Below, piece by piece: positions 11,728-57,747 of a stretch of 64,000 bases of DNA. Location: the NCBI GenBank assembly GCA_963812115.1, contig CAWEUD010000043.1:123535-187534 (forward strand), written 5' to 3'. How positions within the stretch are numbered: the stretch's first letter is position 1; the number at the start of each line of letters is the position of its first letter. The notes beneath the pieces were generated by a model. It had not been told where the DNA came from and made no database searches. It saw only the letters and a program-made list of their open reading frames with translations. Origin of the DNA: an uncultured Chloroflexia bacterium (GTDB lineage: Bacteria; Chloroflexota; Limnocylindria; QHBO01). The position numbers were made by a program, and so were the translations under genes.

Positions 11728-11908
11728 ATCCCCCTGGTCAGCTCCATGCGGTTCGGCGATGAGGCGTATGGCATGGCGCGTGCCAGTTGCATCGCGTCGC
11801 GCGAGAGGACCGCCCCGATCCCGTGGTAGCCTTCGACGGCGACCCGGTCACGGTCTCGCACCCACGTCGGACCGCGCTCATTCGCCCCCGAAGGCCGAGG
11901 AAGACTGT

Positions 11909-13217
11909 CGTGCCCCACGTCCCAATCGAACGACACCAGCTGAGGAACGGGCTGCGCGTCGTGCTCTCACGCGGCGACCTGGCGCCGATCGTGGCGGTGA
12001 ACCTGTGGTACGACGTCGGCAGCAAGCACGAGAAGGCAGGCAAGACGGGGTTCGCCCACCTCTTCGAGCACATGATGTTCCAGGGCTCCGAACACGTCGC
12101 CAAGGGTGAGCACTTCGCCCTGGTGCAGGCCGCGGGAGGGACGCTCAACGCATCGACCTGGCTCGACCGCACCAACTACTTCGAGACGCTCCCGAGCCAC
12201 GAGCTGGAGCTCGGGCTCTGGCTCGAGGCTGACCGCCTCGCCTCGCTGCTGCCGGCGATGACCCAGGACAAGCTCGACAACCAGCGCGAGGTCGTCAAGA
12301 ACGAGCGCCGCTGGTCGGTCGACAACCAGCCGTACGGGACCTGGGACGAGAAGATCCAGGAGCTCGTCTACCCGGACGGGCATCCCTACCACCACTCGAC
12401 CATCGGCTCCATGGACGATCTCGACGCGGCGAGCCTGAGGGATGTCTCCGACTTCTTCGCGACGTACTACGCCCCGAACAACGCCGTGCTCACCGTGGCC
12501 GGCGACTTCGAGCCGGTCGCCGCCCTGGCGATGATCGAACGACACTTCGGACCGATCCCCGCCAACGCCTCGCTGCCGCCTGCCCCAGCCATGGAGGTGA
12601 CCCCACGCATCGGGCGTGAAGTTCGGGAGGTCGTCCACGACCGGGTCCCGCTTCCGCGCGTCTATCTCGCCCACCGCATGCCGGTCTTCGGCACCGATGA
12701 GTTCGAGGCGCTCATGGTCGCCGCCGATCTGCTCGGCTCCGGTCGTGCCTCGCGGATGTACCGCAGTCTCGTCAGGGAGCGGCAGCTGGCTGGCGACGTC
12801 AGCGTCTTTCCCTTCCCGATCGTGGGCGGTGCGTCGATGTTCACGCTCTGGGCCACGGCGCGCGAGGGCATCGAGGCCGATGCGCTCGAGGCCGCCCTGC
12901 TGGCCGAGATCGACCGCCTCGCGGCCGATGGTCCGTCCGACGAGGAGCTGGAGCGCGTCCGCAACCTCCATGCAGCGTCGGTGGAGTCGAGCCTGGAGCG
13001 GATCGCGGAGCGGGCCGATCGGATCTCGATGTACACCTGCCTCTTCGACGATCCGGACCGCATCAACAGCGAGGTGAGCCGCTACCTGGCGGTCGATGCG
13101 GAACGGGTCGTGGACGCGATGCGCGAGACGCTTCGGCCAGACAACCGGCTGGTCCTGACCTACCTGCCCGTCGCCGCGGAGCCGGGCGAGATACGTTCCG
13201 AGGAGGTGGTCACATGA
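11909..13217 (+). CDS. M16 family zinc peptidase (insulinase-like; active subunit with HxxEH)
   Basis: Inverted zinc-binding motif HLFEHMMFQG. The start is set at a GTG preceded by GAGGAAG. The N-terminus of the longer ORF 11787.. is low complexity. Confidence 0.85.
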
Positions 13218-14569
13218 GCCTGGCACCCAATCCGCTGCGGCCGACGCCAGGTGCACCGCGGCCGTATCGCTTCCCGGAATTCGACCGACGTCGGCTGCCG
13301 AACGGCCTGACGGTCTGGTCGGTCTCACTTCCCGGCGCCACCATGGTCAACGCTCACCTGCTGGTCGACGGCGGCGCTGCGGCGGAAGACGAGGAGCACG
13401 CGGGCGTCGCCTATCTGACCGCTCAGATGCTCACCACCGGAACGCGGCGACTCGACGCGTCCGCCTTCGCCGAGGCGACCGAGCGGCTGGGGATCGAGGT
13501 CAGCTCCGAGTCCAGCTGGGACTCCGCGCGGGCGGCGTTCCAGTCACTCCCCGAGCACCTGGAGGAAGGCTTTGGGCTGCTCGCAGAGATGATCCTGGAG
13601 CCCCGGTTCGACCCCGCGGAATTCACGCGGCTGAAGGCGGAGCGGCTGAACGACATCCTCCAGTCGCGGGCGGATCCCGGGCGATTGGCCGAGGAGATGT
13701 TCCTGCGCCACGTCTTCGATCCCGAGACCCCCTACCGGCGGCTCTCGGCCGGCACGCCGGAGAGCATCGCCGCCGTCACCCTCGACGACGTGCGAGCGCA
13801 CCACGCGGCGCACTGGCAACCGGGACTCGCGCACCTGATCGTGGCCGGAGCGGTCGATCCGGAGACGATCGAACGGCTGGCGCAGATGCGGCTCGGCGCC
13901 TGGGATGGCACCGGACCGGGGCATCGGACCTTCGAGACGCGGCCGGCCGGCGGCCGCCGGGTGGTCATCGTCGACCGTCCCGGTTCGGTCCAGAGCGAGC
14001 TGCGCATGGGGCATCCGGGCATCTCCCGCACATCGGATCGCTACTTCCCGGCCATGGTCATGGCGGCCATGCTCGGCGGCGTCTTCGGCTCGCGGCTCAA
14101 CATGCGACTTCGCGAGGAACTCGGCTACACCTACGGCGCCCGCGCGGGGTTCGATGCGCGCCGCGCGGCCGGTCCCTTCTCTGCAGCGGCCGCCGTGCAG
14201 ACCGAGGTGACCGCCGATGCGATGCGCGAGATGTTCGCGCAGCTGGAGCGGGTCAGGGCGGCCGCTCCGGAACTCGCGGAGCTTCGCGAGGTCCGTGACT
14301 TCCTGATCGGTGTGTTCCCGCTCCGCTTCGAGACGACCGGCGGTGTCGCCACGGCCATCGAGCCACTCGCCATCTACGGGCTGCCCGACGACTACTGGCA
14401 GACCTATCGTCGGCAGATCGAGGCGGTCGGACCGGACGACGTCGCCGCGGCCGCGCGGGACCTCATCCGTCCCGACGCTCTCCTCATGCTGGTGACCGGC
14501 GACGCCGCGCGCATTCGGGACGAGATCGAGGCCGCGCAGCTCGCCGAGGTGGAGGTGGTCAGCGCCTGA
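13214..14569 (+). CDS. M16 family peptidase, non-catalytic partner subunit (no HxxEH)
   Basis: 451 aa, M16-like throughout. ATGA overlap with the upstream M16 gene. Confidence 0.8.
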   Translation: MSLAPNPLRPTPGAPRPYRFPEFDRRRLPNGLTVWSVSLPGATMVNAHLLVDGGAAAEDEEHAGVAYLTAQMLTTGTRRLDASAFAEATERLGIEVSSESSWDSARAAFQSLPEHLEEGFGLLAEMILEPRFDPAEFTRLKAERLNDILQSRADPGRLAEEMFLRHVFDPETPYRRLSAGTPESIAAVTLDDVRAHHAAHWQPGLAHLIVAGAVDPETIERLAQMRLGAWDGTGPGHRTFETRPAGGRRVVIVDRPGSVQSELRMGHPGISRTSDRYFPAMVMAAMLGGVFGSRLNMRLREELGYTYGARAGFDARRAAGPFSAAAAVQTEVTADAMREMFAQLERVRAAAPELAELREVRDFLIGVFPLRFETTGGVATAIEPLAIYGLPDDYWQTYRRQIEAVGPDDVAAAARDLIRPDALLMLVTGDAARIRDEIEAAQLAEVEVVSA

Positions 14570-14581
14570 CGCGCACCCGCT

Positions 14582-16039
14582 TCAGGCGTCGTCGCGTCGC
14601 GGCCATCGGAGCAGGAACACCGCCGCCGGCGCGCGCTCCTCGAGCCGGACGATGCCACCCTGCGCCTCCATGGCGGCGCGGACGAGGTACAGGCCCAGGC
14701 CAAGGCCGCGACCGGAGTTCACGCGCTCGATGAAGAGGTGCTCCGCGACGTCGTCGCTCACCCCTGGGCCGGCGTCCCGCACCCGCAGCTCCGGTGCCAC
14801 GCCACTGCTGATCTCGACCGCGATCGGCTCGCCGTCGGTGGAGTAGCGATCGGCATTGGTGAGCAGGTTGGTGAGCGCCTGCTGGGTCAGCTGGAGATCG
14901 CCGACGACCAGCGGCTCGCCGCTGACGCTGATCTCCACCTCGCGGTCACTGCCGCTCGCCCGCAGCCGCTCCACGGATGCGGACGCGGCCTCCCGCAGGT
15001 CGAATGGCTGCAGATCGGCCTCGAGGCGGCCGGCCTCGGCGCGGGAGAAGAGCTCGAGGCGGTCGAGGATGGCGATGGCCGCGTCGACCGACTCCAGCGC
15101 GCGCTGGGCGTGCGACGAGGCGCCGGAGACGGCCGTGGTCGCGCGCGCGCCCAACTCGATGCGGGCCTTGGCCACGGCCAGCGGGTTCCGCAGCTCGTGG
15201 GCGACGAAGCTCGCGAAGCGAGAGAGTCGGCGGCGTTCGTCGACCTCCTTGCCGACATCTCGGAGGAGCAGCACGCAACCGCCGTCGGGGACCGGCGTCC
15301 CCTCGACGTCGACCAGCAGGTCCTTCCCGGACATCGGTAGGCGAATGATCATGCGGCGCCTGGTGACGGCGTCCCGGGCTTGCACCTGCGGCCAGTCGTC
15401 CATCGACAGCGGTTGCCCACGGTCGTCGCGCGGTTCCGCGAGACGACCCCACTCGTCCAGGGGACGGTCGTAGAAGCTGCGGCCGAAGGTGCGCAGCGCG
15501 GCGCGGTTCGCGTAGGTTCCCCTTCCATCGGCGGCGTAGACGATGAGCGGCTCCGGGATCGCCTCGGCCACCTCCTCGAGCCGCGTGCGCTCTCGCTCGA
15601 CCTGCTGCAGCGCGTTCTGCAGATCGCGTCGCGCCTCGTCGGCGGCGCTCCGCTCGCGATTCGCCATCTGCTCGGCGGCGACACTCATGTCCCGGGCCAG
15701 CCGGCTCTCGGTGTGCTGGCGCTCAGCGCGCATGGCCAGCAGGACGATCATCGGCGCGCCGACGACGAACAGGGTCACGCGCGCCAGGTTGGCAGCGCTC
15801 ACCAGCTCGTTCTGGACGACGATCCCCTGGGCGATCAGCGACCCGCCAGCGATGGCGTAGGTCGTGACGGCGGCGGCCGGTCCCAGCGTCAGACCGACGA
15901 GCGCGACCGCGAGCAGCGGCAGCACGGCGAACGTCGACTCCCCTGTCATCTCACCGAGCACCGCCCCGCCTGCGGCGGCCAGGGCGCCAAAGGCCACCCC
16001 GGTCAGGATGCGACCGACGCCGGTGCCGCCCAGGCTCAC
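14582..16039 (-). CDS. Sensor histidine kinase: multi-TM N-terminus, coiled coil, PAS-like, HisKA, HATPase
   Basis: C-terminal HisKA motif (FASFVAHELRNPL) and HATPase motifs (N box LTNLLTNADRY, G boxes). The proposed start is a GTG at 16039 that overlaps the TGA of the upstream J-domain gene (GTGA). The 330-aa Arg/Ala-rich extension of ORF ..17038 is rejected because it overlaps the J-domain CDS. No response regulator is adjacent. Confidence 0.8.
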   Translation of the reverse strand: MSLGGTGVGRILTGVAFGALAAAGGAVLGEMTGESTFAVLPLLAVALVGLTLGPAAAVTTYAIAGGSLIAQGIVVQNELVSAANLARVTLFVVGAPMIVLLAMRAERQHTESRLARDMSVAAEQMANRERSAADEARRDLQNALQQVERERTRLEEVAEAIPEPLIVYAADGRGTYANRAALRTFGRSFYDRPLDEWGRLAEPRDDRGQPLSMDDWPQVQARDAVTRRRMIIRLPMSGKDLLVDVEGTPVPDGGCVLLLRDVGKEVDERRRLSRFASFVAHELRNPLAVAKARIELGARATTAVSGASSHAQRALESVDAAIAILDRLELFSRAEAGRLEADLQPFDLREAASASVERLRASGSDREVEISVSGEPLVVGDLQLTQQALTNLLTNADRYSTDGEPIAVEISSGVAPELRVRDAGPGVSDDVAEHLFIERVNSGRGLGLGLYLVRAAMEAQGGIVRLEERAPAAVFLLRWPRRDDA

Positions 16040-17238
16040 GGCGAGGAGGCTCCGACCGCGGCCAGCTCCTGCCTGCCGTCGCGGCGACGCGCCTCGCGCT
16101 GCTGCCGGACGCGAGCACGGGCAAGGCGCTGCCGCGCGGCCCCGATGCGTCGGATCGGGTCTCCACCGATGCGCCGCCGATCGAGCGCCTCCGGATGCTC
16201 CCCGCGCGCAATCGCCGCCAGCAGCTCGGAGGCCCGGTCGAGCTGCCCCGCTTCGGTCAGCAGCTGCACCACGCTGAACCAGCGCGAGGCTTCGCGCACG
16301 GGCTCCCGACTGACCCGTTCCACGAGCTCGGCGGCGCGGCCGGGGTGGCCGGCACGACGGTGGGCGGAGATCGCTGCCCGGACGTCGGGGAAGCTGGCCT
16401 CCATCCCGAGCGCCTCGACGAAGTTCAGCAGCAGCTCCGCCGCCTCCGCCCGGTCCTCGGGCCTGCCGCGGCGCACGCGCTGGTCGCGGAACTCGGCGAG
16501 GAGAGCGCGCAGCTCGCGATCGACCCAGCGACGCGGAGGGCTCTCGGGCGTATACCGCTGCGCCATCTCCCGAAGGAAGCCCACGCCCCGCAGGTACGAG
16601 CCAGTGAACACGTACGCCTGGCGCATGCCGGCGCGGACGAGCGTCTCGTAGCCGCCGTCCAGGCGGAGCAGGCGCTCGAGCGTCCCCAGCCAGTCGTCGT
16701 AGCGGCCGCGTTCGCGATAGTACCCGGCTGCGTAGCGCAGCCAGTAGTGCTCGGCATGCTCGCGCCAGTCCTCGCCGGCGATGTGGTGTTCCACGATCCA
16801 GGCGCCCTGCTGCGCCGGGCCGGCCATGAAGACGTCGGCCGGGACCCGGAAGCCGGCCACGTTCCGCCACTGCGGCTGGTGCCAGCGGCTCGGCCGATCG
16901 GGCTGGATGAGTCGCGGCCGGGCGCGCGCGCGGGACGGCTCGTGGGGCTCGAGTGGCCATGGCAGCGTCGCTGCCTGTCCGCGCTCCAGGGCGTGATCGT
17001 AGTGCAGCCGGCGCAGGGGGTCGCGCAGCTCCGCCCACGCGCGGTTGAGGATCGACGTTCGCCGCGTCGCGAGGCCACCGGCAGTGCTGCGATCGGGATG
17101 GTGCCGCAGGACCGCCTCGCGGAACGCGCTCCGCAGCTCGTCGACGGTCGCGGACGGCTCGGCCCCCAGCACAGCGTAGAAATCGCGCTGCTCGAGCTGC
17201 GCGTCCCGACCCTCGTCGCCCACGGATCCACCGACCAT
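16036..17238 (-). CDS. J-domain (DnaJ N-terminal domain) protein with a large alpha-helical/TPR-like C-terminal domain
   Basis: J-domain signature DFYAVLGAEPSATVDELRSAFREAVLRHHPDR near the N-terminus. The ATG at 17238 is internal to the longer ORF 16036..18069, whose upstream part is antisense to cphB. About 400 aa. Confidence 0.7.
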   Translation of the reverse strand: MVGGSVGDEGRDAQLEQRDFYAVLGAEPSATVDELRSAFREAVLRHHPDRSTAGGLATRRTSILNRAWAELRDPLRRLHYDHALERGQAATLPWPLEPHEPSRARARPRLIQPDRPSRWHQPQWRNVAGFRVPADVFMAGPAQQGAWIVEHHIAGEDWREHAEHYWLRYAAGYYRERGRYDDWLGTLERLLRLDGGYETLVRAGMRQAYVFTGSYLRGVGFLREMAQRYTPESPPRRWVDRELRALLAEFRDQRVRRGRPEDRAEAAELLLNFVEALGMEASFPDVRAAISAHRRAGHPGRAAELVERVSREPVREASRWFSVVQLLTEAGQLDRASELLAAIARGEHPEALDRRRIGGDPIRRIGAARQRLARARVRQQREARRRDGRQELAAVGASSP

Positions 17239-17304
17239 CGGATGAGCATACGACGCCCGCTCCACGTTCGCCTCGCCACCGCCATTGGGTATGCTGCCGG
17301 GCAC

Positions 17305-18297
17305 ATGGCCGCCCAGTCTCGCCCCGGCCGTGCCCGCGCCGGGCACCTGCTGATCATCGGAGGCGCGGAGGACAAGCTGCGTCAGCGGCAGATCCTCTCC
17401 CGCTTCGTCGCGCTCGCCGGCGGCGGCGACGCGCGTATCGCGGTCATCTCGACGGCATCCTCCCTCGGCGACGAGGCGACCGACCTCTACCAGTCGCTCT
17501 TCCACCAGATGGGCGTTCCCGACGTCCGCGGCCTCCGCCCCCTGACCCGCGACGAGGCGAATGACGCAGAGGTCTGCGGTGCCCTCGACGACGCGACGGG
17601 AATCTTCATGACCGGCGGCAACCAGCTTCGCCTCTCGAGCGTGATCGGGGGCACGGCGCTCGGACGCGCCATCGTGGAACGGCACCGGCGCGGCTGCATC
17701 GTGGCGGGCACCAGCGCCGGCGCCTCGGCGATCAGCAGCCATATGGTCGCCTTCGGTACCAGCGGGCCGACCCCGAAGCAGCGCATGACGCAGATGAGCG
17801 CGGGACTGGGGCTCCTGCCGGGCGTGATCATCGACCAGCACTTCGAGCAGCGGAACCGCCTTGGACGCCTGCTCGCCCTGGTGGCCCAGTCGCCCGCCCT
17901 GCTGGGGATCGGCATCGACGAGGACACGGCAGCCCTCGTGTCGCCCGCGGGCGTGGTGGAGGTCATCGGCAAGGGATCGGTCATGATCCTCGACCCGGCC
18001 CGGATCCAGACCGATGCCTACGAGGTCAAGCGCCATCGACCGATGATGATCAGTGGCGTGGTCCTCCACTCACTGCCTTCAGGCTACCGGTTCGACCTGC
18101 GCAAGCGTCGCCTGCTGGCGCCGCTGCGTCCGGTCTCGGCCAGCGAGCGGGAGCTCGCCCAGCTAGACCGTGCCGGCGCGGTCACGCGTCGGCTCATCCG
18201 CCGCATCGCCGCGGAGGGCGCGGACGATACGGCCCCCGAGCGCGCCCGGCGTCGCGAGCTCTACGCTCGTCGCAAGGAAGAGGAGGCGAGCGAGTGA
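17305..18297 (+). CDS. cphB: Cyanophycinase (peptidase S51)
   Basis: 330 aa from the ATG at 17305 with S51 cyanophycinase motifs (HLLIIGGAED, IAVISTASS, catalytic-Ser region GTSAGASAI). The upstream part of ORF 16195..18297 is antisense to the J-domain gene. Confidence 0.85.
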   Translation: MAAQSRPGRARAGHLLIIGGAEDKLRQRQILSRFVALAGGGDARIAVISTASSLGDEATDLYQSLFHQMGVPDVRGLRPLTRDEANDAEVCGALDDATGIFMTGGNQLRLSSVIGGTALGRAIVERHRRGCIVAGTSAGASAISSHMVAFGTSGPTPKQRMTQMSAGLGLLPGVIIDQHFEQRNRLGRLLALVAQSPALLGIGIDEDTAALVSPAGVVEVIGKGSVMILDPARIQTDAYEVKRHRPMMISGVVLHSLPSGYRFDLRKRRLLAPLRPVSASERELAQLDRAGAVTRRLIRRIAAEGADDTAPERARRRELYARRKEEEASE

Positions 18298-21134
18298 CAT
18301 CGGGCCGCTCGCGCTCGAAGACGCCGAGGCCGATCTCGCGTGCCTCGGTCGCCAAGGCCGAAGCCGGGAAAGGGCGGCGCGCGCGGTCGTCGCCGGCGGC
18401 GAGCCTGCGCATCCTCGAGACGCGCGTCTACCGCGGCCCGAACTACTGGAACTACGAGCCCGCGATCAAGCTCATCGTCGACCTGGGCGTGCTCGAGGAC
18501 TTCCCTTCCAACACGATTCCCGGCTTCGTCGACGGCCTGCTCGACATGCTCCCCGGCATCGGGCAGCACTCGTGCTCCACGGGCAAGGCGGGGGGCTTCG
18601 AGCAGCGGCTGCGCGAGGGAACGTGGGCCGGGCACGTTGCCGAGCACATCGCCCTGCAGCTGCAGCGCGACGCAGGCACCGAGGTTGGTCGTGGCAAGAC
18701 CCGCAGCACCGGGGAGCCCGGACGCTACCACGTCGTCTACTCGTACGCGGAGGAGTCCGTCGGCCTGGCAGCCGGTCGCCTCGCCGTCCGAACCGTCAAC
18801 CACCTCGTCGAACCCGACCCCGACTTCGACTTCGTCGCCGATTTCGAGCGGCTCGTCCTGCTCGCCGAGCGCGCTGCGTTCGGACCCTCGACGCAGTCGA
18901 TCCTGGACGAGGCCGCGCTGCGCGACATCCCCTCCATTCGGCTCAACGAACAGTCGCTCGTGCAGCTGGGCCACGGGGTCCACCAGCGCCGGATCCGCGC
19001 CACCATGACCAGCCAGACCAGCTCGCTGGGCGTCGACATCGCGTCGGACAAGAAGCTGACGAACAAGCTGCTCGGCGGCGCCGGCGCCCCCGTGCCGCGC
19101 GCCAAGGTCGTGGGCAGCGAGGAGGACGCAGTCGCGGCGGCGATCAGCATCGGCTTCCCGGTGGCGGTCAAGCCGCTCGACGGCAACCACGGGCGCGGCG
19201 TCATGCTGAACCTGTCCGACGAGGGCGCCGTGCGAGCCGGCTACGCACACGCTCGCTCGGAATCGCGCCGCGGCGGCGTGGTGGTCGAGACGTTCCTGGC
19301 AGGCAATGACTACCGCTGCCTCGTCGTCGGCGGCACGCTGCGAGCGGTGGCACAGCGGGTGCCGGCCCACGTCGTCGGCGACGGCGAGCACTCGCTGAGC
19401 GAACTGGTCGAGCAGACCAACCTCGACCCGCGACGCGGCATCGGCCACGAGAAGGTCCTGACCCGAATCAAGGTCGACGAGGAATCGATCTCCTACGCCC
19501 GCGAGCAGGGGTTCGAGCTGAGTGACGTGCCCCCGCGCGGCGTCCGTGTCTTCCTCAAGCGCACCGGCAACATGAGCACCGGCGGGATCAGCATCGACCG
19601 GACAGAGGAGATCCACCCCGACAACGCCGAGATCGCCGAGCTGGCCGCGCGGGTGGTCGGGCTCGACATTGCCGGCATCGACTTCATCTGTCCGGACATC
19701 AGCGTCCCGGTGCGGGAAACCGGCGGCGGGATCGTCGAGGTCAATGCGGCGCCCGGGTTCCGGATGCACACCCACCCGACCGAGGGCGAGGCGCAGTACG
19801 TGGCCAAGCCGGTCATCGACATGCTCTTCCCGCCGGGTTCGCCATCGCGGATCCCGATCGTGGCGGTCACCGGCACGAACGGCAAGACGACGACGGCCCG
19901 GATGATCGCCCACGTCATGAAAGGCATGGGCCGCAAGGTCGGCATGACCTCCACCGATGGGATCTTCGTGGACGGACGGCCGGTGCGACGTGGTGACATG
20001 TCCGGGCCGCGCTCCGCCTCGACCGTGCTGCAGAACCCGAACGTCGACTTCGCCGTCTTCGAGGTGGCACGCGGCGGCATCCTGCGCGAGGGCCTCGGCT
20101 ACCAGCGCAACGACGTGGCGGTCGTCCTCAACGTGACCGGCGACCACCTTGGGCTGGGCGGGATCACCTCGCTGCGGCAGCTCGCCGCGGTGAAGCAGGT
20201 GGTCGTGGAGGCGGTCCCCCGCGACGGCGTGGCGGTGCTCAACGCCGACGACCCGCTGGTTGCGCCGATGGGGCGCCACTGCTCCGGCTCGGTGATCTAC
20301 TTCAGCATGAACGCCGAGAACGAGCTGGTGCGCCGTCAGGCCTCGCGCGGCCGGCGTGCCGTCACCCTCGAACCCGGTCACAACGGGGAGATGATCGTCC
20401 TGCGCCAGGGCCGCAAATCGATGCCGCTGGTCTGGACCCACCTCCTGCCGGCGACCTTCGAGGGCAGGGCGCGCATGAACGTCCAGAACGCACTTGCGGC
20501 GACGGCCGCGGCGTGGGCCGCCGGGGCACACCTGCACGACATCCGACAGGGCCTGCGGACCTTCACGACCAGCTACTTCATGGCGCCCGGCCGCCTCAAC
20601 GTGTTCGAGCTGGACGGCTACCGCGTGGTCGTCGACTACGCCCACAATCCGCCGGCGGTCGCGGCACTGGGAGAGTTCGTCGATTCGATGGCCAGGCCGT
20701 CGCCGGGTGGCAGCCGGCCGCTGGTGACGGGACGGCGGATCGGCGTCATCGCCACCGCGGGCGACCGGCGGGACGAGGACATCGTGGAGCTCGGCAGGAC
20801 GGCCGCGCGCTACTTCGACACGATGATCGTCCGCGAGGACGCCAATAGCCGCGGCCGCGCGCCCGGCGATACGGCTGCGCTGATCGAACGCGGCGCGCGC
20901 GAGGCGATGAGCGACGGAGCCCGCTGCGCGGAGGTGACCACCATGCTCGATGAGCTCGAAGCCACCCGCCACGCCCTGGACATGGGATCCGAGGGCGACA
21001 TCGTGGTGGTCTGCGTCGACCACGCCAACGACGTCTGGAAGGAACTGCAGCATCGACAGCACGGCGGATCGAGCGCTGGTGCCCCGGGCTTCCGGGCAGT
21101 GACCGGCCTCGCCGAGTCGGAGGTCGAGCTCTAG
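18294..21134 (+). CDS. cphA: Cyanophycin synthetase CphA (complete N, ATP-grasp G and Mur-ligase M domains)
   Basis: 946 aa: N domain (LRILETRVYRGPNYWNYEPAIKLIVDL), ATP-grasp (AVKPLDGNHGRGV, EVNAAPG), M domain P-loop VTGTNGKTTTARM. The GTG start overlaps the cphB stop (GTGA) and is preceded by GAGGAGG. Confidence 0.9.
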   Translation: MTSGRSRSKTPRPISRASVAKAEAGKGRRARSSPAASLRILETRVYRGPNYWNYEPAIKLIVDLGVLEDFPSNTIPGFVDGLLDMLPGIGQHSCSTGKAGGFEQRLREGTWAGHVAEHIALQLQRDAGTEVGRGKTRSTGEPGRYHVVYSYAEESVGLAAGRLAVRTVNHLVEPDPDFDFVADFERLVLLAERAAFGPSTQSILDEAALRDIPSIRLNEQSLVQLGHGVHQRRIRATMTSQTSSLGVDIASDKKLTNKLLGGAGAPVPRAKVVGSEEDAVAAAISIGFPVAVKPLDGNHGRGVMLNLSDEGAVRAGYAHARSESRRGGVVVETFLAGNDYRCLVVGGTLRAVAQRVPAHVVGDGEHSLSELVEQTNLDPRRGIGHEKVLTRIKVDEESISYAREQGFELSDVPPRGVRVFLKRTGNMSTGGISIDRTEEIHPDNAEIAELAARVVGLDIAGIDFICPDISVPVRETGGGIVEVNAAPGFRMHTHPTEGEAQYVAKPVIDMLFPPGSPSRIPIVAVTGTNGKTTTARMIAHVMKGMGRKVGMTSTDGIFVDGRPVRRGDMSGPRSASTVLQNPNVDFAVFEVARGGILREGLGYQRNDVAVVLNVTGDHLGLGGITSLRQLAAVKQVVVEAVPRDGVAVLNADDPLVAPMGRHCSGSVIYFSMNAENELVRRQASRGRRAVTLEPGHNGEMIVLRQGRKSMPLVWTHLLPATFEGRARMNVQNALAATAAAWAAGAHLHDIRQGLRTFTTSYFMAPGRLNVFELDGYRVVVDYAHNPPAVAALGEFVDSMARPSPGGSRPLVTGRRIGVIATAGDRRDEDIVELGRTAARYFDTMIVREDANSRGRAPGDTAALIERGAREAMSDGARCAEVTTMLDELEATRHALDMGSEGDIVVVCVDHANDVWKELQHRQHGGSSAGAPGFRAVTGLAESEVEL

Positions 21135-22744
21135 CTGCCGGCAGCCGCCACCAACTCGCCCAGCTGCTGTGGCGGGACCGCGTTGAATCCCTCGTCTCCG
21201 AGCCAGGAGAAGATTTCGCCGCGCTCGACGTGCGACATGACCGCCACGAGGTCTCCGCGCCGGGACCGCGAGAGCAGCGCCTGCAGCGCGGACAGCTCGC
21301 TGGGATGGGCCGGCATCTCGTCGCGGTAGCCGCCGTCGGCAGCACCGCGACGGAAGATCTCGTTCATCGCCTCCAGGTCCCGCCCGCGCAGGTAGTGACG
21401 CTTCTCGCAGATGACGACATCGTCGGCCCCCTGGCCGGCCAGCCGACCCAGGTTGTGCAGGACCTCATCGGTCCTGTCGCCGGCCGTGCCGAGCGCGAGC
21501 CGAACCTGACCGCGGCCGCCGACCAGCCCGCGGCAGACCTCCAGCAGCCCACGCAGCCCCGCTTCGTTGTGGGCGAAGTCGATCAGGACCAGCAGGCCAC
21601 CCCGCTCGTAGAGGTTCATCCGGCCCGGGTTGGCGACGCTGTCCTGGGTAAAGGTGCGCAGTCCCGCCCGGATCCGCGCCGGACGAATGCCCAGGGCGTC
21701 AGCCCCCGCAGCGGCAGCCAGCGCATTCGCCACGTTGTAGGTCGAGAGCCCGCCGAAGGTGACCGGTATCTCTGCCAGCGGAGCCAGCCGCAGGGGACGC
21801 CTTGCGCCGCGCAGCAGGGTCAGCCAACCGTCCTTCAGCACGGCGGCGCGACCGCCCGCTTCGAGCGCCTGGCGCACACCGTCCGCTTCCGGAGAGAGAC
21901 TGAACGCGTAGCGGGCAGCCCTCGTCCAGCGGCGCATCGCCCAGACCCGCTCGTCCTCCGCGTTGAGTACGGCCCACCCACTGCGCCGCGTGATGCGGAC
22001 GATGGCGCCCTTCACCTCGGCCAGCTCGTCGAGCGTGTCGATGCCCTGCAGTCCCAGGTGGTCGGCGCTCACGTTCGTGACGATGGAGACGTCGTTGGCG
22101 CCGTAGCCGATGCCGCGCAGGAGGATGCCGCCGCGCGCCGTCTCGAGGACGGCGAGGTCGATCCCATCCTCGGCCAGGACGCGACCGGCGCCACCGAAGC
22201 CGGTCCAGTCCCCCGCCTCCACCAACTTCCCGTCGACGAAGATGCCGTCGGAGTTCGTCATCCCAACCCGCCTGCCCGCCGTGGTGGCAATGTGGGCCAG
22301 CAGTCGGGTGGTCGTGCTCTTGCCGTTGGTCCCGGTGATCGCCACGATCGGCACGCGTGCCGCGGGGAGGCTCGGGAGCGGACCGAGCGCCATCGCCCGC
22401 AGGCCCCGCAGCTCGCGCCGTTCGCTGCTGGCACCCGCTGCGATGCGGGCCGCGGATGCCCCGACCGCCTGGGAGATCGTCCGCCGATGCCAGGGGTAGG
22501 CCACCAGGGCCCGCCGGCCGTCCGCAGATCCGCGCCGCGCGATGCGCGGCACGGGCAGGTCCAGGAGCGCGTGAAGACGCTGGACGGCCTCACCGGCGGC
22601 GACGCTCGTCTCGTCCGCCAGACCGGGCTCGATGGCGCCGAACTCGAGCTTGATCGCCGGCCGCCTGAAGAACCGGTTGGGGCCGTCGAGGACGCGCAGT
22701 TCCAGGAGCTCCACGTCGCCGTCCGAGCGCCCGTCCTGCGGCAT
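21131..22744 (-). CDS. Cyanophycin-synthetase-like Mur ligase family protein lacking the ATP-grasp domain (CphA N domain + M domain only)
   Basis: The N-terminal segment LELRVLDGPNRFFRRPAIKLEF parallels the CphA N domain. It is followed directly by the Mur-ligase P-loop ITGTNGKSTT, then DHLGLQ and a C-terminal Mur ligase domain. There is no ATP-grasp motif. The start is ambiguous (22744 MPQDG vs 22792), so coordinates are +/-1 to 48 nt. Convergent with cphA. Confidence 0.75.
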   Translation of the reverse strand: MPQDGRSDGDVELLELRVLDGPNRFFRRPAIKLEFGAIEPGLADETSVAAGEAVQRLHALLDLPVPRIARRGSADGRRALVAYPWHRRTISQAVGASAARIAAGASSERRELRGLRAMALGPLPSLPAARVPIVAITGTNGKSTTTRLLAHIATTAGRRVGMTNSDGIFVDGKLVEAGDWTGFGGAGRVLAEDGIDLAVLETARGGILLRGIGYGANDVSIVTNVSADHLGLQGIDTLDELAEVKGAIVRITRRSGWAVLNAEDERVWAMRRWTRAARYAFSLSPEADGVRQALEAGGRAAVLKDGWLTLLRGARRPLRLAPLAEIPVTFGGLSTYNVANALAAAAGADALGIRPARIRAGLRTFTQDSVANPGRMNLYERGGLLVLIDFAHNEAGLRGLLEVCRGLVGGRGQVRLALGTAGDRTDEVLHNLGRLAGQGADDVVICEKRHYLRGRDLEAMNEIFRRGAADGGYRDEMPAHPSELSALQALLSRSRRGDLVAVMSHVERGEIFSWLGDEGFNAVPPQQLGELVAAAGS

Positions 22745-22767
22745 GGCCGGCAGTATACTCACGCGCC

Positions 22768-23928
22768 ATGCCGATCCCGCCGGACCTGCCACAGGCCGTC
22801 AGGGCCCGATACCCGCGCTACCTGGCGGAGCTCGAATCCCTGGTCAACGTCGACTGCGGCTCGCACACGCCGCCTGGCGTCAATCGCATCGCGGATGCGG
22901 TGGCCGAGTCCCTCGCAGAGCTTGGAGCGAGCGTGGAGCGCCGCTCGCCGGAGCCCGGGCAGCCCCTCGGAGATCTCGTCATCGGCCGCCTCATCGGCGA
23001 GGGCTCCCGACTGCTGCTCATCGGCCACATGGACACGGTCTTCGAGCCCGGGACGGTGGCCGAGCGGCCGTTTCGGGTGGAGGGCGAACGGGCGCTCGGT
23101 CCGGGCACGAGCGACATGAAGGGCGGGCTGCTGGCGGGCCTGCACGCGGTGGCTGCGCTGCACGAGATCGGCATCCGGCCGACCATCACCTTCGTCGCGA
23201 ATCCGGACGAGGAGATCGGCTCGCCGTTCAGCACGCCGCACATCCGCGAACTGGTCCCCGAACACGATGCCGCACTGGTGCTCGAGTGTGCCCGGGCCAA
23301 CGGCGATATCGTCAGCGCACGGAAAGGCATCGCAGACCTGGAGGTCACCTTCACGGGCCGGGCCGCGCACGCGGGCGTGGAGCCGGAGAAGGGACGCTCC
23401 GCGATCCTGGCGGCTGCGCGCCAGGTCGTGGCGCTCGAGGACCTCAACGGTCGATGGCCGGGCGTCACGCTGAACGCCGGCGTGATCCGTGGTGGAACGC
23501 GCCCGAACGTGGTCGCCGCCGAGTGCCGGCTGACGCTCGATCTGCGTGCCGCGGCCGCCGACGCCTTCGATGCGGCCATGGAGGAAGTCGAGCGGCTGCT
23601 GCACTCCCCCTCCGTCGACGGCGTGCATGTCGAGCTGCAACGGCTGGCCGCGCACCCGCCGATGGAGAAGTCGCCGGCCACGGCCCGGCTGGCCGACCTC
23701 GCGCACGGCCTCGCAGCCGAGCTCGGGTTCGACCTTCGCGATGCCGCGACCGGGGGAGCGTCGGACGCCAACACCACCGCGGCCGCGGGGCTGCCGACAC
23801 TCGACGGGCTGGGGCCGATCGGGGGCGACGATCACTCTGCCGACGAGTGGCTGGACCTTTCGAGCGTCGTCCCGCGCGTGACGCTCCTCGCGGCGCTGAT
23901 AGCGTCGGCGGAGCGGGCGCTGGCCTGA
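22768..23928 (+). CDS. M20 family metallopeptidase (carboxypeptidase G2 / glutamate carboxypeptidase-like)
   Basis: 386 aa. Metal-binding motifs HMDTV, PGTSDMKGG and NPDEEIGS, and a dimerisation domain. Divergent from the G-less cphA paralog, with starts about 25 nt apart. Confidence 0.85.
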   Translation: MPIPPDLPQAVRARYPRYLAELESLVNVDCGSHTPPGVNRIADAVAESLAELGASVERRSPEPGQPLGDLVIGRLIGEGSRLLLIGHMDTVFEPGTVAERPFRVEGERALGPGTSDMKGGLLAGLHAVAALHEIGIRPTITFVANPDEEIGSPFSTPHIRELVPEHDAALVLECARANGDIVSARKGIADLEVTFTGRAAHAGVEPEKGRSAILAAARQVVALEDLNGRWPGVTLNAGVIRGGTRPNVVAAECRLTLDLRAAAADAFDAAMEEVERLLHSPSVDGVHVELQRLAAHPPMEKSPATARLADLAHGLAAELGFDLRDAATGGASDANTTAAAGLPTLDGLGPIGGDDHSADEWLDLSSVVPRVTLLAALIASAERALA

Positions 23929-41913: not shown

Positions 41914-43278
41914 TCAATCGTCCTCGCGCACGCGCGGGCGCCGCGAGCCGGAGGAGCCCATGGCGCTGTGCACGTCCTCGACCTTGAGCTGGACGGGATC
42001 GGCGCCGAAGAAGGCGGTCAGCAGCCAGTCGATCCCGACGCGGACCTTGCGGTTGAAGCCCGGCGTCCGGCTCCAGTAGTAGCCACGCCACATGAACCAG
42101 GCCAGGATGCCCCGCACCTTGAACCCGAAGATGACGCCGACCCCGGTGTGGTGGCCGATGGAGGCGAGCTGGCCGAGCGGCTCGTAGCGAAACGCGTGCT
42201 GCGTTCGACCATCGATGCGGGCCAGGATGTTGTCGGCCAGCGTCTTCGCCTCCCGGACGGCGTTCTGGGCGGTCGGCGCGTAGGGTTCGTGGTCGGGCTT
42301 CGGGTTTGGGATGACGGCGCAGTCACCGATCGCCCACACGTCATCACGGCTGGTCTGCATGGTGGCCTGCGTGAGCACCCGACCGCCCTTGTCCACTTCC
42401 ACGCCGCAGTCGCGGACCACGGGCGCCGGGCGCACACCACCGGTCCACACCACCGTGCGGGTGGGGATCGTTTCGGTGCTCTCACCGTGCTGGACGACGA
42501 CCTCTCGCTCGCGGACCTCCTTGATCGCCGTCTGCAGCAGGACCCGGTAGCCGCGCCCTTCGAGCTGCCGCCGCGCGTACTCCCCCATCTCCGCGGACTG
42601 CTCACCGAGCAGCCGATCGCCGAGCTCCACGAGGACCGTCTGCACCTGCCGCTGCCCGATCTTGCGGTAGTAGCGGCGTCGCACGCGTCGCACGAAGTCC
42701 TCGAGCTCGCCGGCCGTCTCGACGCCGCTGAACCCGCCACCGCCGACGACGAACGTCAGCTGCGCGGCGCGCTCCGCCGGATCCTCCTCGAGCTCGGCGC
42801 GCTCGAACATCTCGATGATCCGGTTGCGCAGGCTGAAGGCATCGGCCAGCGTCTTCATCCCCATGGCGTACTCGTCGATGCCGGGAATGCCGAACGTGTG
42901 GGTCACGCCACCGAGCGCCAGGACGAGCCAGTCGTAGCCGAGCCGATGCAGGTCGCCGTCGCCGCCCAGGACCGTCACGACCCGCTGGTCGAGGTCGATC
43001 TGCTCGACATCGGCGGTGATGCACCAGGTGCTGGGTCGCTTCACCATGCCGCGCAGCGGCGCGACGACGTGGCGCGGCTCGAGGACGCCGGAGCACACCT
43101 CTGGCAGGAGCGGCGTGAAGAGCATGAAGTTGTCCTGGTTGACGAGCCAGATCTCCACGTCCTCGCGCTCGCCCAGGCGAGACTCGAGCGCCTTGACCGT
43201 CTCGACGCCGGCGAAACCCCCGCCGAGCACCAGGATTCTCTGCGGCCTGGGACCGGATGAAGTCGTCACGTCCGCCAT
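41914..43278 (-). CDS. ndh: Type II NADH:quinone oxidoreductase (NDH-2)
   Basis: Two dinucleotide-binding motifs ([10 protein letters not shown]; [12 protein letters not shown]). The start is trimmed to the ATG at 43278 (MADVTTSSG), because the upstream 82 codons are low complexity. Confidence 0.85.
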
Positions 43279-43369
43279 GGTGACAGGCTCGTCGAGCACT
43301 GCAAACGTCCGGCGCTGTGACCGACGCCCGATTTCGTGCCACCGCATCGGTCTGTACCATAGGCGGCCC

Positions 43370-46066
43370 ATGGACCGACCGATGCACGAGATCTTCGACC
43401 AGTTCAAGCACCAGCTCCCCGACATCGACCCCGTCGAAACGCAGGAGTGGATCGATTCGCTGGACGCGGTCGTCGACCAGGTGGGCGCCGAGCGCGCACG
43501 ATTCCTCCTCTTCAAGCTGCTCAAGCGGGCGCGGCAGCGGCAGGTTGGGTTGCCATCGCTGGTGCAGACCCGCTACATCAACACCATCTCGCCCGAACAG
43601 GAGCCGTACTTCCCCGGCGACGAGGCGATGGAGCACCGCATCCGGCGCATGATCCGCTGGAACGCGCTGGCCATGGTGCTGCGCGCGAACTCTCGCTTCG
43701 AGGGGATCGGCGGCCACCTGTCCACCTACGCCAGCGCCGCCAGCCTGTACGAGGTCGGCTTCAACCACTTCTTCCGCGGGCCCGATGGCGAAGGCAGCGG
43801 CGACCAGGTCTTCTTCCAGGGCCATGCCGCCCCCGGCATCTACGCCCGCGCCTTCCTCGAGGGGCGGCTGGACGAGGACAACCTCGACCACTTCCGCCGA
43901 GAGGCGCTGACCCCCCAGGGCCTCTCCTCGTACCCGCACCCGCGGCTGATGCCCGACTTCTGGCAGTTCCCGACGGTGAGCATGGGCCTCGGCCCCATGA
44001 ACGCGATCTACCAGGCGCGTTTCAACCGCTACCTGGCCGCGCGCGGCATCGCGGATACGAGCAGGAGCCGCGTATGGGCGTTCCTCGGGGACGGTGAGAT
44101 GGACGAGCCGGAGTCGATCGGCGCCCTCTCGCTCGCTGCGCGCGAGGGCCTCGACAACCTGGTCTTCGTCGTCAACTGCAACCTGCAGCGGCTCGACGGT
44201 CCGGTGCGCGGCAACGGGAAGATCATCCAGGAGCTGGAGGCGCTCTTCCGCGGCGCCGGCTGGCACGTCATCAAGGTCATCTGGGCCCGCGAGTGGGACG
44301 ACCTGCTGGCGCGGGACAAGGATGGCGTCCTGCTCAACAAGATGAACGAGACGCTCGATGGCGACTACCAGCGCCTCTCGGTGGCCGATGGGGCCTACAT
44401 TCGCGAGCACTTCTTCGGCCCGGATCCGCGGCTCGGTGCGCTCGTCGAGCACCTCTCCGACGAGGAGCTTGCCAAGCTGCGGCGCGGCGGCCACGACTAC
44501 CGCAAGGTCCATGCGGCCTACGCGGCGGCCGTCGAGCACGCTGGCGCACCAGTGGTGATCCTGGCCAAGACGGTCAAGGGCTGGACGCTGGGTCCCGGAA
44601 TCGAGGCCCGCAACGTCACGCACCAGGCCAAGAAGCTGACCCAGGACGAGCTGAAGGTCTTCCGCGATCGCCTTGAGCTGCCCATCCCGGACGACCAGCT
44701 CAAGGAGGCTCCCTACTACCACCCCGGAGCCGACTCGCCGGAGATCGAGTACATGCTCGAGCGACGGCGGCAGCTGGACGGCTTCCTGCCGCAGCGCTCC
44801 GTGCATCCGATGCCGCTGGCCAACGCCGCCGATGGCGCCTACCAGGAGCTCTTCGCGGGATCGGAGCGGGCCGCCTCGACGACCATGGCCTTCAGCCGCC
44901 TGGTCCGGAACCTGACACGCGACAAGCAGATCGGGGCGCGCATCGTGCCCATCATCCCGGACGAGGCGCGCACCTTCGGCATGGATCCGCTCTTCAAGGA
45001 GATCGGCATCTACAACCCGCTCGGCCAGCGCTACACGCCGGTCGACAAGGAGCTGCTGCTGTCGTACCTCGAGAAGGAGGACGGGCAGATCCTGGAGGAG
45101 GGCATCACGGAGGCCGGCGCCATGGCCGACTTCACCGCCGCCGGGACCGCCTACGCCACCCACGGCCAGCCGATGATCCCGTTCTACATCTTCTACTCGA
45201 TGTTCGGTTTCCAGCGAACCGGCGACTTCGCGTGGGCCTTCGGCGACGTCCGCGGCCGCGGCTTCATGATGGGCGCCACCGCCGGTCGCACGACGCTCAC
45301 CGGCGAGGGGCTGCAGCACGACGACGGCCACTCGCACCTGCTCGCCACCACGCTGCCCAACATCCGCGCCTACGACCCGGCCTTCGCCTACGAGCTGGCG
45401 GTCGTGGTGCGCGACGGCATCGGGCGCATGTACGGCGAGGCCGCCGAGGACGTCTTCTACTACGTCACCCTCTACAACGAGAACTGGGCGATGCCGGCCC
45501 GTCCCGATGGCGTCGACGACGGAATCCTGCGCGGGCTCTACCGCTACCGGGCCGCCGAGCGCGGGTCGCGGCGTGTCCAGCTGCTGGCGTCCGGCCCCAT
45601 CCTGCACCAGGCCCTGCGTGCCCAGGAGCTGCTCGCGGAGCGCTACGACGTGGCCGCCGACGTCTGGAGCGCTCCGTCGTTCCAGCAGCTGCGGCGAGAC
45701 GCGCTGCAGGTGGAACGCTGGAATCGGCTCCATCCCGAGAGCGAGCTGCGGGTTCCGTACCTCGTCGAACAGCTCGCCGGCACGGATGGGCCGATCGTTG
45801 CCGCCACCGACTACATGAAGGCCGTGCCGCACATGATCGCGCCGTGGCTCACCGACCGGCAGTACACCGTCCTGGGGACCGATGGGTTCGGCCGCAGCGA
45901 CACGCGCGAGGCGCTTCGCACGCACTTCGAGGTGAGTCCGGAGCAGATCGCCTACGCGTCGCTCCACGGCCTGTGCCTGACCGATCAGGGCAGCCGCGAG
46001 GAGCTGGTCCGGGCGCTAGGTGAGCTGGAGATCGACCCGGATCGGCCCGATCCGGTGCAGTCCTGA
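43370..46066 (+). CDS. aceE: Pyruvate dehydrogenase E1 component, homodimeric AceE type
   Basis: About 900 aa, AceE-like along its length (TPP-binding [10 protein letters not shown], transketolase-like domains). The start is trimmed to the ATG at 43370. Confidence 0.9.
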
Positions 46067-46078
46067 ATCGAGCCTTGC

Positions 46079-46615
46079 CTACTCCCCGGAGAGGCGCGGA
46101 ACTCGCCGCAGCCGCGTCCCGCACTCGCCGCAGAACAGGTAGGAGGCCTCCGCCAGCGAGCCACAGGTGGGGCAGTACGTGGGACCCAGCATGCCGAGCG
46201 CGGCCCGAAAGGCCGCGACGAGGGCTCGCAGCGTGCGCTCCACCACGGCCGGCAGGCCGCGACGCCGAAACCAGCCCGCCCGAGCGCCGTCGCCCTCCTC
46301 CGTGACAGCGTCGACGCCTGGTGGGGCCACGGCGCGGCGCTGCGCGACGCGGGCCCCTGGCGTCCACCCCGACAGGAAACGACTACGCGCGCGGTCGTAG
46401 GCCGCGCGCTCGGCAGGATCCGTGAGCATGTTCCGCACGGCGTTCACGACCCCCATCTCCTCATTCGCGCGCGGCGAGCGGTTACGGTCGGGGTGGAACC
46501 GGCGGGCGAGCCGCCGGCAGGCGGCCGAGACTTCCTCGCTGGAGGCTGAATCATCGAGCTGGAGGAGACGATAGACGTCGCGCTCCGGATGGTAGGGCAG
46601 CAGGCTGGGATGCAT
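46079..46615 (-). CDS. J-domain protein with a C-terminal CxxC...CxxC zinc ribbon
   Basis: J-domain (DVYRLLQLDDSASSEEVSAACRRLARRFHPDR) and C-terminal CPTCGS...CGECG. Confidence 0.7.
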   Translation of the reverse strand: MHPSLLPYHPERDVYRLLQLDDSASSEEVSAACRRLARRFHPDRNRSPRANEEMGVVNAVRNMLTDPAERAAYDRARSRFLSGWTPGARVAQRRAVAPPGVDAVTEEGDGARAGWFRRRGLPAVVERTLRALVAAFRAALGMLGPTYCPTCGSLAEASYLFCGECGTRLRRVPRLSGE

Positions 46616-56919: not shown

Positions 56920-57747
56920 TCAGGACGAGGTGGCGCGCTCCGCGACGGGAATGGCGTCGGCGGGGCCGGAATCGCTGGCGGCACCGGCGTCCCGCAACAG
57001 CAGGCGGGAGATATGCCACAGACGTCCGTCGCGCTGCAGAATCTCGGCCTCCGCAGACGCCGTGAAGTGGCTGCCGTCGGCCGCACGCAGCATCACGTCA
57101 CCATTCCAGCGGCCGTCCGCGAGATAGCGGTTCCACGTGGCCTCCGTCCATTCCACCGCGTGAGCCACGATGTCGGCCACCCGCAGCGAGCGAAGCTCCT
57201 GTGCCTCGAGCCCCAGGAGACGCAGCGCGGCGCGCGACGCATCCAGCAGTCGGGATTCCTCGTCCGCCACCAGAACCAGATCGCCGTCGCCCCAGAGCGG
57301 CGCCGGGCGCCGCTCCAGCAATCGCGCCACCGCCTGCTCCAGGTCCTCGATGCCGAACGGTATCTCGAGTGCCGCGAGCAGGGCATCCGACTCGATCGCT
57401 TCGGCTTCGCCTCGCAACGCCTGCAGGTCGGCGGAGCAGATCAGCAGCGGGACCTGCTGGAGCAGCGGATCTGAGCGCACGGGTGCCAGCCACTGCCAGC
57501 CTTCCGGGTCGCGGCCACCGCCCTGGAGTCCCAGGTCGAGGACAATCACGTCCGGCCGCGTCTCGGCGATGGCGCTCGCCTCCAGGCCGTCGCCGGAGAG
57601 CGCGGTGACCTCGTACCCCGCCAGCTGCAGGATCTCGGTGACCACCGATCGCAGATCGACATGTCCCTCCACCAGCGTGATACGGGCCGATGTGCGAGTT
57701 GAAACGTCACCTTCCACGGCAACCTCCGCTGAGCCGTCGCGAGACAT
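56920..57747 (-). CDS. Response-regulator receiver domain protein with a C-terminal PAS domain (no DNA-binding output)
   Basis: REC-like region (…PDVIVLDLGL…LLICSAD…) followed by a PAS-like fold (…LVLVADEESRLLDASRAALRLLGLEAQEL…NGDVMLRAADGSHF…). Confidence 0.6.
   Translation of the reverse strand: MSRDGSAEVAVEGDVSTRTSARITLVEGHVDLRSVVTEILQLAGYEVTALSGDGLEASAIAETRPDVIVLDLGLQGGGRDPEGWQWLAPVRSDPLLQQVPLLICSADLQALRGEAEAIESDALLAALEIPFGIEDLEQAVARLLERRPAPLWGDGDLVLVADEESRLLDASRAALRLLGLEAQELRSLRVADIVAHAVEWTEATWNRYLADGRWNGDVMLRAADGSHFTASAEAEILQRDGRLWHISRLLLRDAGAASDSGPADAIPVAERATSS

Follow-up and report, generated by a model that had tools for sequence, protein, structure and literature searches.

A J-domain protein gene overlapping an orphan histidine kinase gene in the candidate class Limnocylindria

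The 64-kb stretch of DNA analysed here (the window; ~70% G+C) comes from an uncultured Chloroflexia bacterium whose closest relatives are metagenome-assembled genomes (MAGs) of the Chloroflexota class Candidatus Limnocylindria. On its reverse strand lie two overlapping genes, the first encoding a J-domain protein (J) and the second a membrane-anchored histidine kinase (HK), set between the divergently oriented cyanophycin genes cphB and cphA1 and a convergent pair of M16 peptidase genes (Table 1). An earlier annotation made from the nucleotide sequence without database searches (the sequence-only reading) had singled out this pair as an unusual coupling of a co-chaperone to a sensor kinase. 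We propose, with slightly better than even confidence, that the two genes constitute a bicistronic, probably leaderless operon, in which a lineage-specific class C J co-chaperone is accompanied by an accessory orphan PAS kinase.

More than 690 homologues of J were found, and the best 120 of these, at 70% identity or more, are all of Limnocylindria type. Relatives of J are encoded by 141 GTDB species representatives, the best 80 of which were retrieved together with their flanks; the comparison comprised 93 related loci in total, each taking in as much as 8 kb to both sides of the J gene. Gene order was counted in 83 non-redundant loci (58 with HK, 21 without HK and 4 uninformative, leaving 79 informative), and the intergenic region between cphB and J was aligned in 78 loci.

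Table 1. Features of the J-HK locus and its immediate neighbours (window coordinates; residue numbers refer to the encoded protein; nt, nucleotides; AF2, AlphaFold2)
Feature	Position	Strand	Basis or remark
J-domain protein coding sequence (CDS), 400 aa	16036..17238	-	translation; Pfam DnaJ; ATG aligned in 78/78 loci
J-domain of J, residues 19-81, HPD at 47-49	16996..17184	-	PF00226
Predicted C-terminal all-helical TPR-like solenoid of J, residues ~158-397, basic helix at end	16048..16767	-	AF2, Foldseek
GTGA junction: J stop TGA (16038..16036) overlaps HK start GTG (16039..16037) by 4 nt	16036..16039	-	sequence ...cgcc GTGA gcc...
Membrane-anchored PAS histidine kinase CDS, 485 aa, GTG start, orphan	14582..16039	-	translation, Pfam, public gene call, AF2
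Four predicted transmembrane helices of HK, residues ~6-103, loops of 2-7 residues, no extracytoplasmic domain	15731..16024	-	hydropathy, AF2
Signalling helix (~104-160), then cytoplasmic PAS (~153-261)	15257..15730	-	PAS_8, AF2, conservation
HisKA/DHp, residues 272-337, phospho-acceptor His281 (codon 15197..15199)	15029..15226	-	PF00512
HATPase_c, residues 381-470, N/G1/G2 boxes intact	14630..14899	-	PF02518
-10-like hexamer TATGCT, 6 nt before J ATG	17245..17250	-	sequence and 78-locus alignment
-10-like hexamer TATGCT, 9 nt before cphB ATG (17305)	17290..17295	+	sequence and 78-locus alignment
cphB (cyanophycinase)	17305..18297	+	TIGR02069, 258 bits (cut-off 126.6)
cphA1 (cyanophycin synthetase)	18294..21134	+	TIGR02068, 1153.8 bits (cut-off 850)
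M16 peptidase pair	11787..13217 and 13214..14569	+	convergent with HK, 12-nt gap

The J protein and the kinase

The J-domain of J is matched over the whole Pfam profile (PF00226, positions 1-63 of 63, residues 19-81, 46.4 bits against a cut-off of 27.8), and its H47-P48-D49 motif is invariant in 25 aligned homologues. Matches to characterised J proteins are confined to this region: the Protein Data Bank (PDB) sequence matches, to the J-domains of Sis1, DnaJ and CbpA, span residues ~13-87, and the DnaJ and CbpA equivalog models align only at residues ~16-87, with 25-37 bits against cut-offs of 377-619 (37.1 against 377 for DnaJ TIGR02349 and 28.3 against 403 for CbpA NF007618, both through the J-domain alone). 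The DjlA model NF006948 reaches 19.9 bits against a cut-off of 162, and the HscB model matches the J-domain only, far under its cut-off. By the equivalog and Pfam models the G/F region, the zinc finger and the C-terminal domains of classes A and B are missing. Because the bacterial DnaJ, CbpA, DjlA and HscB models and the PDB matches cover the J-domain only, J is classed as a class C (type III) J-domain protein. It is predicted to be soluble, its hydropathy profile showing no transmembrane segment (maximum KD19 0.91).

The C-terminal part is modelled by AF2 as a stack of 14 helices, with a predicted local distance difference test score (pLDDT) of ~85-94 over residues ~160-395. When the model was compared with the PDB using Foldseek, the best matches were designed or generic TPR/PPR solenoids, at E >= 2e-3 and with TM-scores of 0.2-0.33; the search returned TPR, PPR and 14-3-3 solenoids only, nothing at E <= 1e-3 and no functional lead. 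In a Pfam search of this region at E <= 10 no model rose above its cut-off, the TPR models falling below theirs (TPR_WDR35, 19.4 bits against 27; TPR_14, 14.5 against 23.5), and a precomputed match to PF14559 is on record for a few homologues. When the C-terminal domain was searched exhaustively with HMMER against 1.84 billion representative proteins, only 39 clusters were recovered, most of them fragments or frame-shifted calls belonging to the J family itself, a result which indicates that the domain is restricted to the Limnocylindria lineage and, by these searches, represents a new family. The solenoid is presumed to be a client- or partner-binding domain. Orthologues of J bear the JGI names ‘curved DNA-binding protein CbpA’, ‘predicted Zn-dependent protease’ and ‘TPR repeat protein’; the first two look like over-annotations, since the CbpA model lies far below its cut-off and Pfam and NCBIfam gave only the J-domain and weak TPR matches.

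HK is predicted to consist of a four-helix membrane anchor, a signalling helix, a cytoplasmic PAS domain and a complete kinase core, with three Pfam models over their cut-offs: PAS_8 (residues 153-206, 33.2 bits), HisKA (272-337; PF00512, 33.5 bits against 26.9) and HATPase_c (381-470; PF02518, 55.5 bits). Across 26 orthologues the H-box block F278-V-A-H281-E-L-R-N-P-L287 is invariant, as are N391, N395, D422, G424, G426, G445, G447 and G449; with H, N, G1 and G2 boxes kept in this way, HK is expected to be catalytically active. The Kyte-Doolittle profile has four hydrophobic peaks (centred at ~20, 47, 66 and 92), and the AF2 model (mean pLDDT 80) places helices at residues 6-32, 35-52, 54-74 and 82-103, the last continuous to ~160, followed by a PAS fold (165-261), DHp (262-335) and CA (344-478). 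The transmembrane helices vary in sequence among orthologues while keeping their hydrophobic pattern, and the best-conserved part of the sensor is the cytoplasmic PAS/signalling-helix region, the blocks of which include LEEVAEAIPEPLIVY and NRAALRxFGRSF. No Pfam model rose above cut-off at E <= 10 over the transmembrane region of HK in the window; two orthologues carry a precomputed match to PF13493 (DUF4118). Neither J nor HK matched any family among the PADLOC defence-system models.

Two other delimitations of the kinase gene were rejected. The 818-aa open reading frame (ORF) at 14582..17038 runs across part of the J CDS in another frame and is a high-GC artefact; the sequence-only reading had already judged that it could not be real beyond about 16040. 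A start at the ATG at 15949 would delete the first transmembrane helix, which is conserved at the protein level in orthologues, and the public gene call of an identical kinase (P0159, 100% identity) is likewise 485 aa long. The sequence-only reading also described correctly the 400-aa protein with its N-terminal J-domain and helical C-terminus, the overlapping GTG start, the kinase with three or four transmembrane helices, coiled coil, PAS, HisKA and HATPase domains, and the opposite-strand M16 peptidase as the next gene downstream; a later kinase start combined with an unconserved pairing would have spoken against its proposal, and both the first helix and the pairing proved to be conserved.

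It had further noted that no response regulator lies nearby, and none was found: receiver-domain genes are absent within 40 kb of HK in the window, the 93 related loci yielded no REC-like match, and the Pfam gene tables of loci L001-L006 and L087-L093 contain no receiver domain. The sole receiver gene of the window, ~40 kb from HK (57747..56920, reverse strand), encodes a REC-PAS protein with a PAS_9 domain and a Response_reg match barely above cut-off (30.7 bits), and nothing ties it to HK. The regulator of HK would then be encoded elsewhere. Orphan histidine kinases are common, and an absence of this kind is not unusual.

Conservation of the gene pair

HK directly follows J in 58 of the 79 informative loci, which answers the question of synteny that the sequence-only reading had raised. 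The junction is a 4-nt ATGA or GTGA overlap in 26 of the 58 loci, and the gap is 14 nt or less in 46. Seen from the side of the kinase, HK orthologues at 57-62% identity also lie directly after J, and no sampled locus had an HK gene separate from J. A scan of positions 14300-17500 for strict sigma-70 consensus promoters and for terminators found nothing, the interior of the J gene included. From this arrangement, the pair is very probably a conserved, co-transcribed and translationally coupled bicistronic operon.

The kinase is missing after J in the remaining 21 of the 79 loci, which on the J-protein tree form one large clade and about four scattered cases. All three long contigs of the most divergent J subclade, whose J proteins are ~53% identical to that of the window, have the order cph-J-M16 without HK. 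Scaled to its neighbours CphB and CphA1, J diverges at the same rate whether or not HK is present: dJ/dCphB is 1.59 for pairs with HK and 1.41 for pairs without it, and dJ/dCphA1 is 1.64 and 1.70, respectively. HPD is 100% conserved in both groups alike, and a comparison of the J proteins of the two groups revealed no differently fixed residue. The J gene is a core gene of the lineage, kept independently of HK, whereas HK is, by these comparisons, an optional accessory passenger, dispensable for J, and the two would not make up a dedicated chaperone-kinase machine. Of the functional pairing envisaged in the sequence-only reading (Hsp70-assisted sensing or regulation of the kinase), the conserved, tight operon stands; the dedication of J to HK does not, given the 21 HK-less loci, the divergent subclade and the equal constraint on J, and the case for a functional importance of the pairing is weak.

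A further gene joins the operon in many relatives. A HisC/CobD-like pyridoxal phosphate (PLP)-dependent aminotransferase gene, its start overlapping the HK stop by 4 nt, is found in locus L001 (10726-11853) and about 27 other loci, yielding a J-HK-aminotransferase operon, and in some genomes without HK it is the gene next after J. It is missing from the window and from the closest relative, L007. Downstream of J there are four configurations: HK, HK with the aminotransferase, the aminotransferase only, and neither.

Promoters, cyanophycin genes and rival explanations

J and cphB diverge from an intergenic region of 66 nt (17239-17304). The ATG of J is invariant in all 78 aligned loci, and in every one of them a TANNNT hexamer (TAGACT, TATCCT or TATGCT) stands 6-8 nt upstream; a TATGCT-like TANNNT hexamer is likewise present 6-10 nt before the cphB ATG in 78 of 78, where chance would place TANNNT at such a position in about 0.4% of loci. 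These boxes emerged solely from the comparative alignment and not from the sigma-70 consensus scan. In the window the two divergent boxes are ~50 bp apart, and the spacer between them varies in length and sequence, with no conserved operator evident across the 78 loci. A -10 box directly before the ATG is the classic signature of leaderless transcripts, and the J-HK and cphB-cphA1 mRNAs are probably leaderless, arising from back-to-back promoters. Locus L038, in which no cph genes lie upstream of J, keeps TAGACT, 7 nt and the ATG before J beside a different upstream gene, from which the J promoter appears to be autonomous.

Several points weigh against the operon of J co-chaperone and accessory kinase proposed here. 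Its co-transcription is deduced from gene spacing and its leaderless promoters from comparison; the contact between J and HK and the link from DnaK to the kinase are drawn by analogy with the DjlA-Rcs system discussed below. No DnaK gene was found in the 64-kb window, and one is expected elsewhere in the genome. All relatives compared are MAGs. The whole block of ~15 kb is collinear across the class, so the adjacency of J and HK is by itself weak evidence. In a mirror-tree analysis controlled for five other neighbours, the partial correlation between J and HK was -0.01, a crude method with which an interaction is still compatible, and J distances were best correlated with those of the M16b peptidase (partial r = 0.40).

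The same collinearity bears on the first rival explanation, in which J serves the cyanophycin genes cphB-cphA1(-cphA2), for instance by bringing DnaK to the CphA1 oligomer or to granules, with a shared promoter region and with HK adding a sense of nitrogen or amino-acid status. Whenever the upstream region is present, J stands back-to-back with cphB, in 78 loci across the family down to ~53% J identity, the exceptions being L038 and L065, where a 1.4-kb insertion separates the two; the paired -10 boxes follow the same conserved pattern, J distances correlate with those of CphA1 and CphA2 (partial r = 0.23-0.25), and in many relatives the aminotransferase overlaps the HK stop. However, the flanking Pyr_redox, 4HBT, M20 and M16 genes are equally kept in order, and the linkage of J to cphB is therefore not specific evidence; in L038, J-HK persists under its own promoter without cph genes upstream of it; J and CphB distances show a negative partial correlation (-0.19); and no title or abstract in the literature searched joined cyanophycin metabolism with J proteins. 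We consider this explanation unlikely. As for the tie to the cyanophycin genes suggested by the sequence-only reading, the conserved back-to-back position was borne out, and what it offers is position only.

Two further genes adjoin the cyanophycin pair. A truncated, CphA2-like cyanophycin synthetase (22792..21131, reverse strand; 553 aa; Mur-ligase M and C domains only) is convergent with cphA1 and is 41.6% identical to the C-terminal half of CphA1. Next to it is a gene for an M20 ‘glutamate carboxypeptidase-like’ hydrolase (22768..23928, forward strand; 304 bits against a cut-off of 349), which could be the dipeptidase of the cyanophycin cluster, since its gene order is conserved in relatives.

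A second explanation, which we hold to be a shade less probable than a cyanophycin link, treats the two genes as unrelated neighbours: HK would have been gained or lost behind a constitutive housekeeping J gene, borrowing its promoter, and the overlap would reflect genome compaction. The patchy occurrence of HK, the optional aminotransferase, the four downstream configurations and the absence of a co-evolution signal in the mirror-tree analysis all fit this account, as do the 4-nt overlaps found at cphB/cphA1, M16a/M16b and HK/aminotransferase. Yet the J-HK junction has stayed close in lineages whose kinases share only ~55-65% identity, HK always accompanied J in the loci sampled, and in L038 the two genes moved or stayed as a pair.

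An obligate module, in which J exists to recruit DnaK to HK for membrane insertion, folding or signalling, is improbable, and for J largely refuted: the overlapping or near-abutting junction is kept in 58 loci, HK always follows J in look-ups made from the side of the kinase, and J-HK(-aminotransferase) remain together in L038 although the cph genes are absent, but J occurs without HK in 21 of 79 loci and in all three long contigs of the deepest subclade, J of HK-less genomes is equally constrained, with HPD invariant and no group-specific changes, and excess co-evolution of J with HK is absent.

A possible mode of action and its precedents

Under the preferred reading of a lineage-specific J co-chaperone with an accessory kinase, J would be expressed from its own -10 box directly before the ATG, back-to-back with the cphB-cphA1 promoter. 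Through its HPD-bearing J-domain, J would engage DnaK, its putative Hsp70 partner, and stimulate the hydrolysis of ATP, and its private TPR-like solenoid would select the client or partner. HK would be translated by termination-reinitiation at the GTGA, and would therefore be made only alongside J and in proportion to it. The four transmembrane helices would anchor the kinase with no outside domain, the signalling helix connecting them to the highly conserved cytoplasmic PAS domain and the intact DHp/CA core. Where present, HK may be one client or partner of J/DnaK, which could act on the PAS or helix region of the kinase in the cytoplasm and in this way tune its output to a regulator encoded elsewhere. 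An elaboration of this scheme, speculative and the least probable of the proposals made here, is that DnaK is titrated by unfolded proteins during starvation or stress, that this alters the grip of J/DnaK on the PAS/helix region of HK, and that an unlinked regulator consequently controls the cyanophycin genes, with HK-less species keeping J for another client or clients.

The closest parallel is the DjlA-DnaK-GrpE/Rcs system of Escherichia coli, where a class C J protein and DnaK alter the phosphorelay of a membrane kinase through cytoplasmic PAS-like regions (PMC11709261). To activate the Rcs phosphorelay, DjlA depends on DnaK and GrpE and on a functional J-domain of its own, and it loosens the contact between IgaA and RcsD (PMC11709261). 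Among well-studied systems, DjlA-Rcs stands alone as a precedent for J proteins feeding into two-component signalling, and nothing else of relevance emerged from the literature searched, where no title or abstract joined J-domain proteins with histidine-kinase operons. Although the components of the present locus are ordinary (a class C J protein and an orphan PAS kinase), no description of their operonic pairing was found in that literature. The two systems also differ in build. DjlA is membrane-anchored, with a TerB-like middle domain and a C-terminal J-domain, whereas J of the window is predicted to be soluble and has its J-domain at the N-terminus, followed by a TPR-like solenoid; djlA lies outside any rcsC/rcsD operon, whereas the J and HK genes overlap; and beyond the J-domain the two proteins are unrelated in sequence. 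Membership of J in the DjlA family was rejected on the missing transmembrane anchor, the opposite domain order and the score of the DjlA model given above.

Other comparisons are looser. J shares with CbpA and DnaJ (classes A and B) a canonical J-domain with HPD, and differs from them in having no G/F region, zinc finger or C-terminal domain of their kind. DNAJC3/P58IPK and DNAJC7 likewise combine a J-domain with a helical-repeat domain thought to pass clients to Hsp70, and P58IPK (2y4t_A) is among the weak fold matches of J (rank 44, E = 3.7e-2). The J-domain of P58IPK is C-terminal, the reverse of the order in J, and the resemblance to P58IPK and DNAJC7 is generic fold similarity only (TM-score <= 0.33), with no Pfam TPR model over its cut-off and a C-terminal family confined to Limnocylindria.

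For the kinase, the nearest likeness is PhoR, with its transmembrane anchor and cytoplasmic PAS, DHp and CA domains; the PhoR model aligns over residues 148-462 of HK. PhoR receives its signal at the PAS domain by way of PhoU, a helical accessory protein, instead of from an outside ligand. HK differs in having four predicted transmembrane helices instead of two, and pst, phoU and PhoB are missing nearby. An assignment of HK as PhoR was rejected, as TIGR02966 gave 78.9 bits against a cut-off of 334.2.

If J does act on HK, the locus would represent a natural, operon-encoded form of Hsp70-dependent control over two-component signalling, which has so far been known mainly from overproduction of DjlA in E. 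coli, and its setting would be an abundant, uncultured class of soil and freshwater bacteria. Were the DnaK-titration scheme true, proteostasis load would be wired directly to the nitrogen reserve in a lineage without a cultured model. The analysis itself defines an apparently lineage-restricted J family with a private, putatively client-binding helical domain, corrects the start site of HK, and provides a comparative signature of candidate leaderless divergent promoters that should be helpful in annotating Limnocylindria genomes.

Elsewhere in the window, a second, small and likewise non-canonical J-domain protein (46079-46615, reverse strand; 178 aa) has a DnaJ match of 53.2 bits and a C-terminal zinc-ribbon (weak Zn_ribbon_3 and DUF7577 matches), its gene adjoining a pyruvate dehydrogenase E1-like gene (43016..46066, forward strand). 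Beyond the M16 pair lie genes for a GDE/MGH1-like glycoside hydrolase (751-aa ORF) and a GT4 glycosyltransferase (386 aa), at 8406-11727 on the reverse strand and present also in relatives, so that a pair of carbon-reserve type adjoins the nitrogen-reserve (cyanophycin) genes. Finally, the MAG records of six contigs bearing the Limnocylindria-specific block (L019, L022, L031, L049, L058 and L068) give the taxon as Methylomirabilota, Steroidobacteraceae or Zixibacteria; such labels are probably binning or taxonomy errors in public assemblies.

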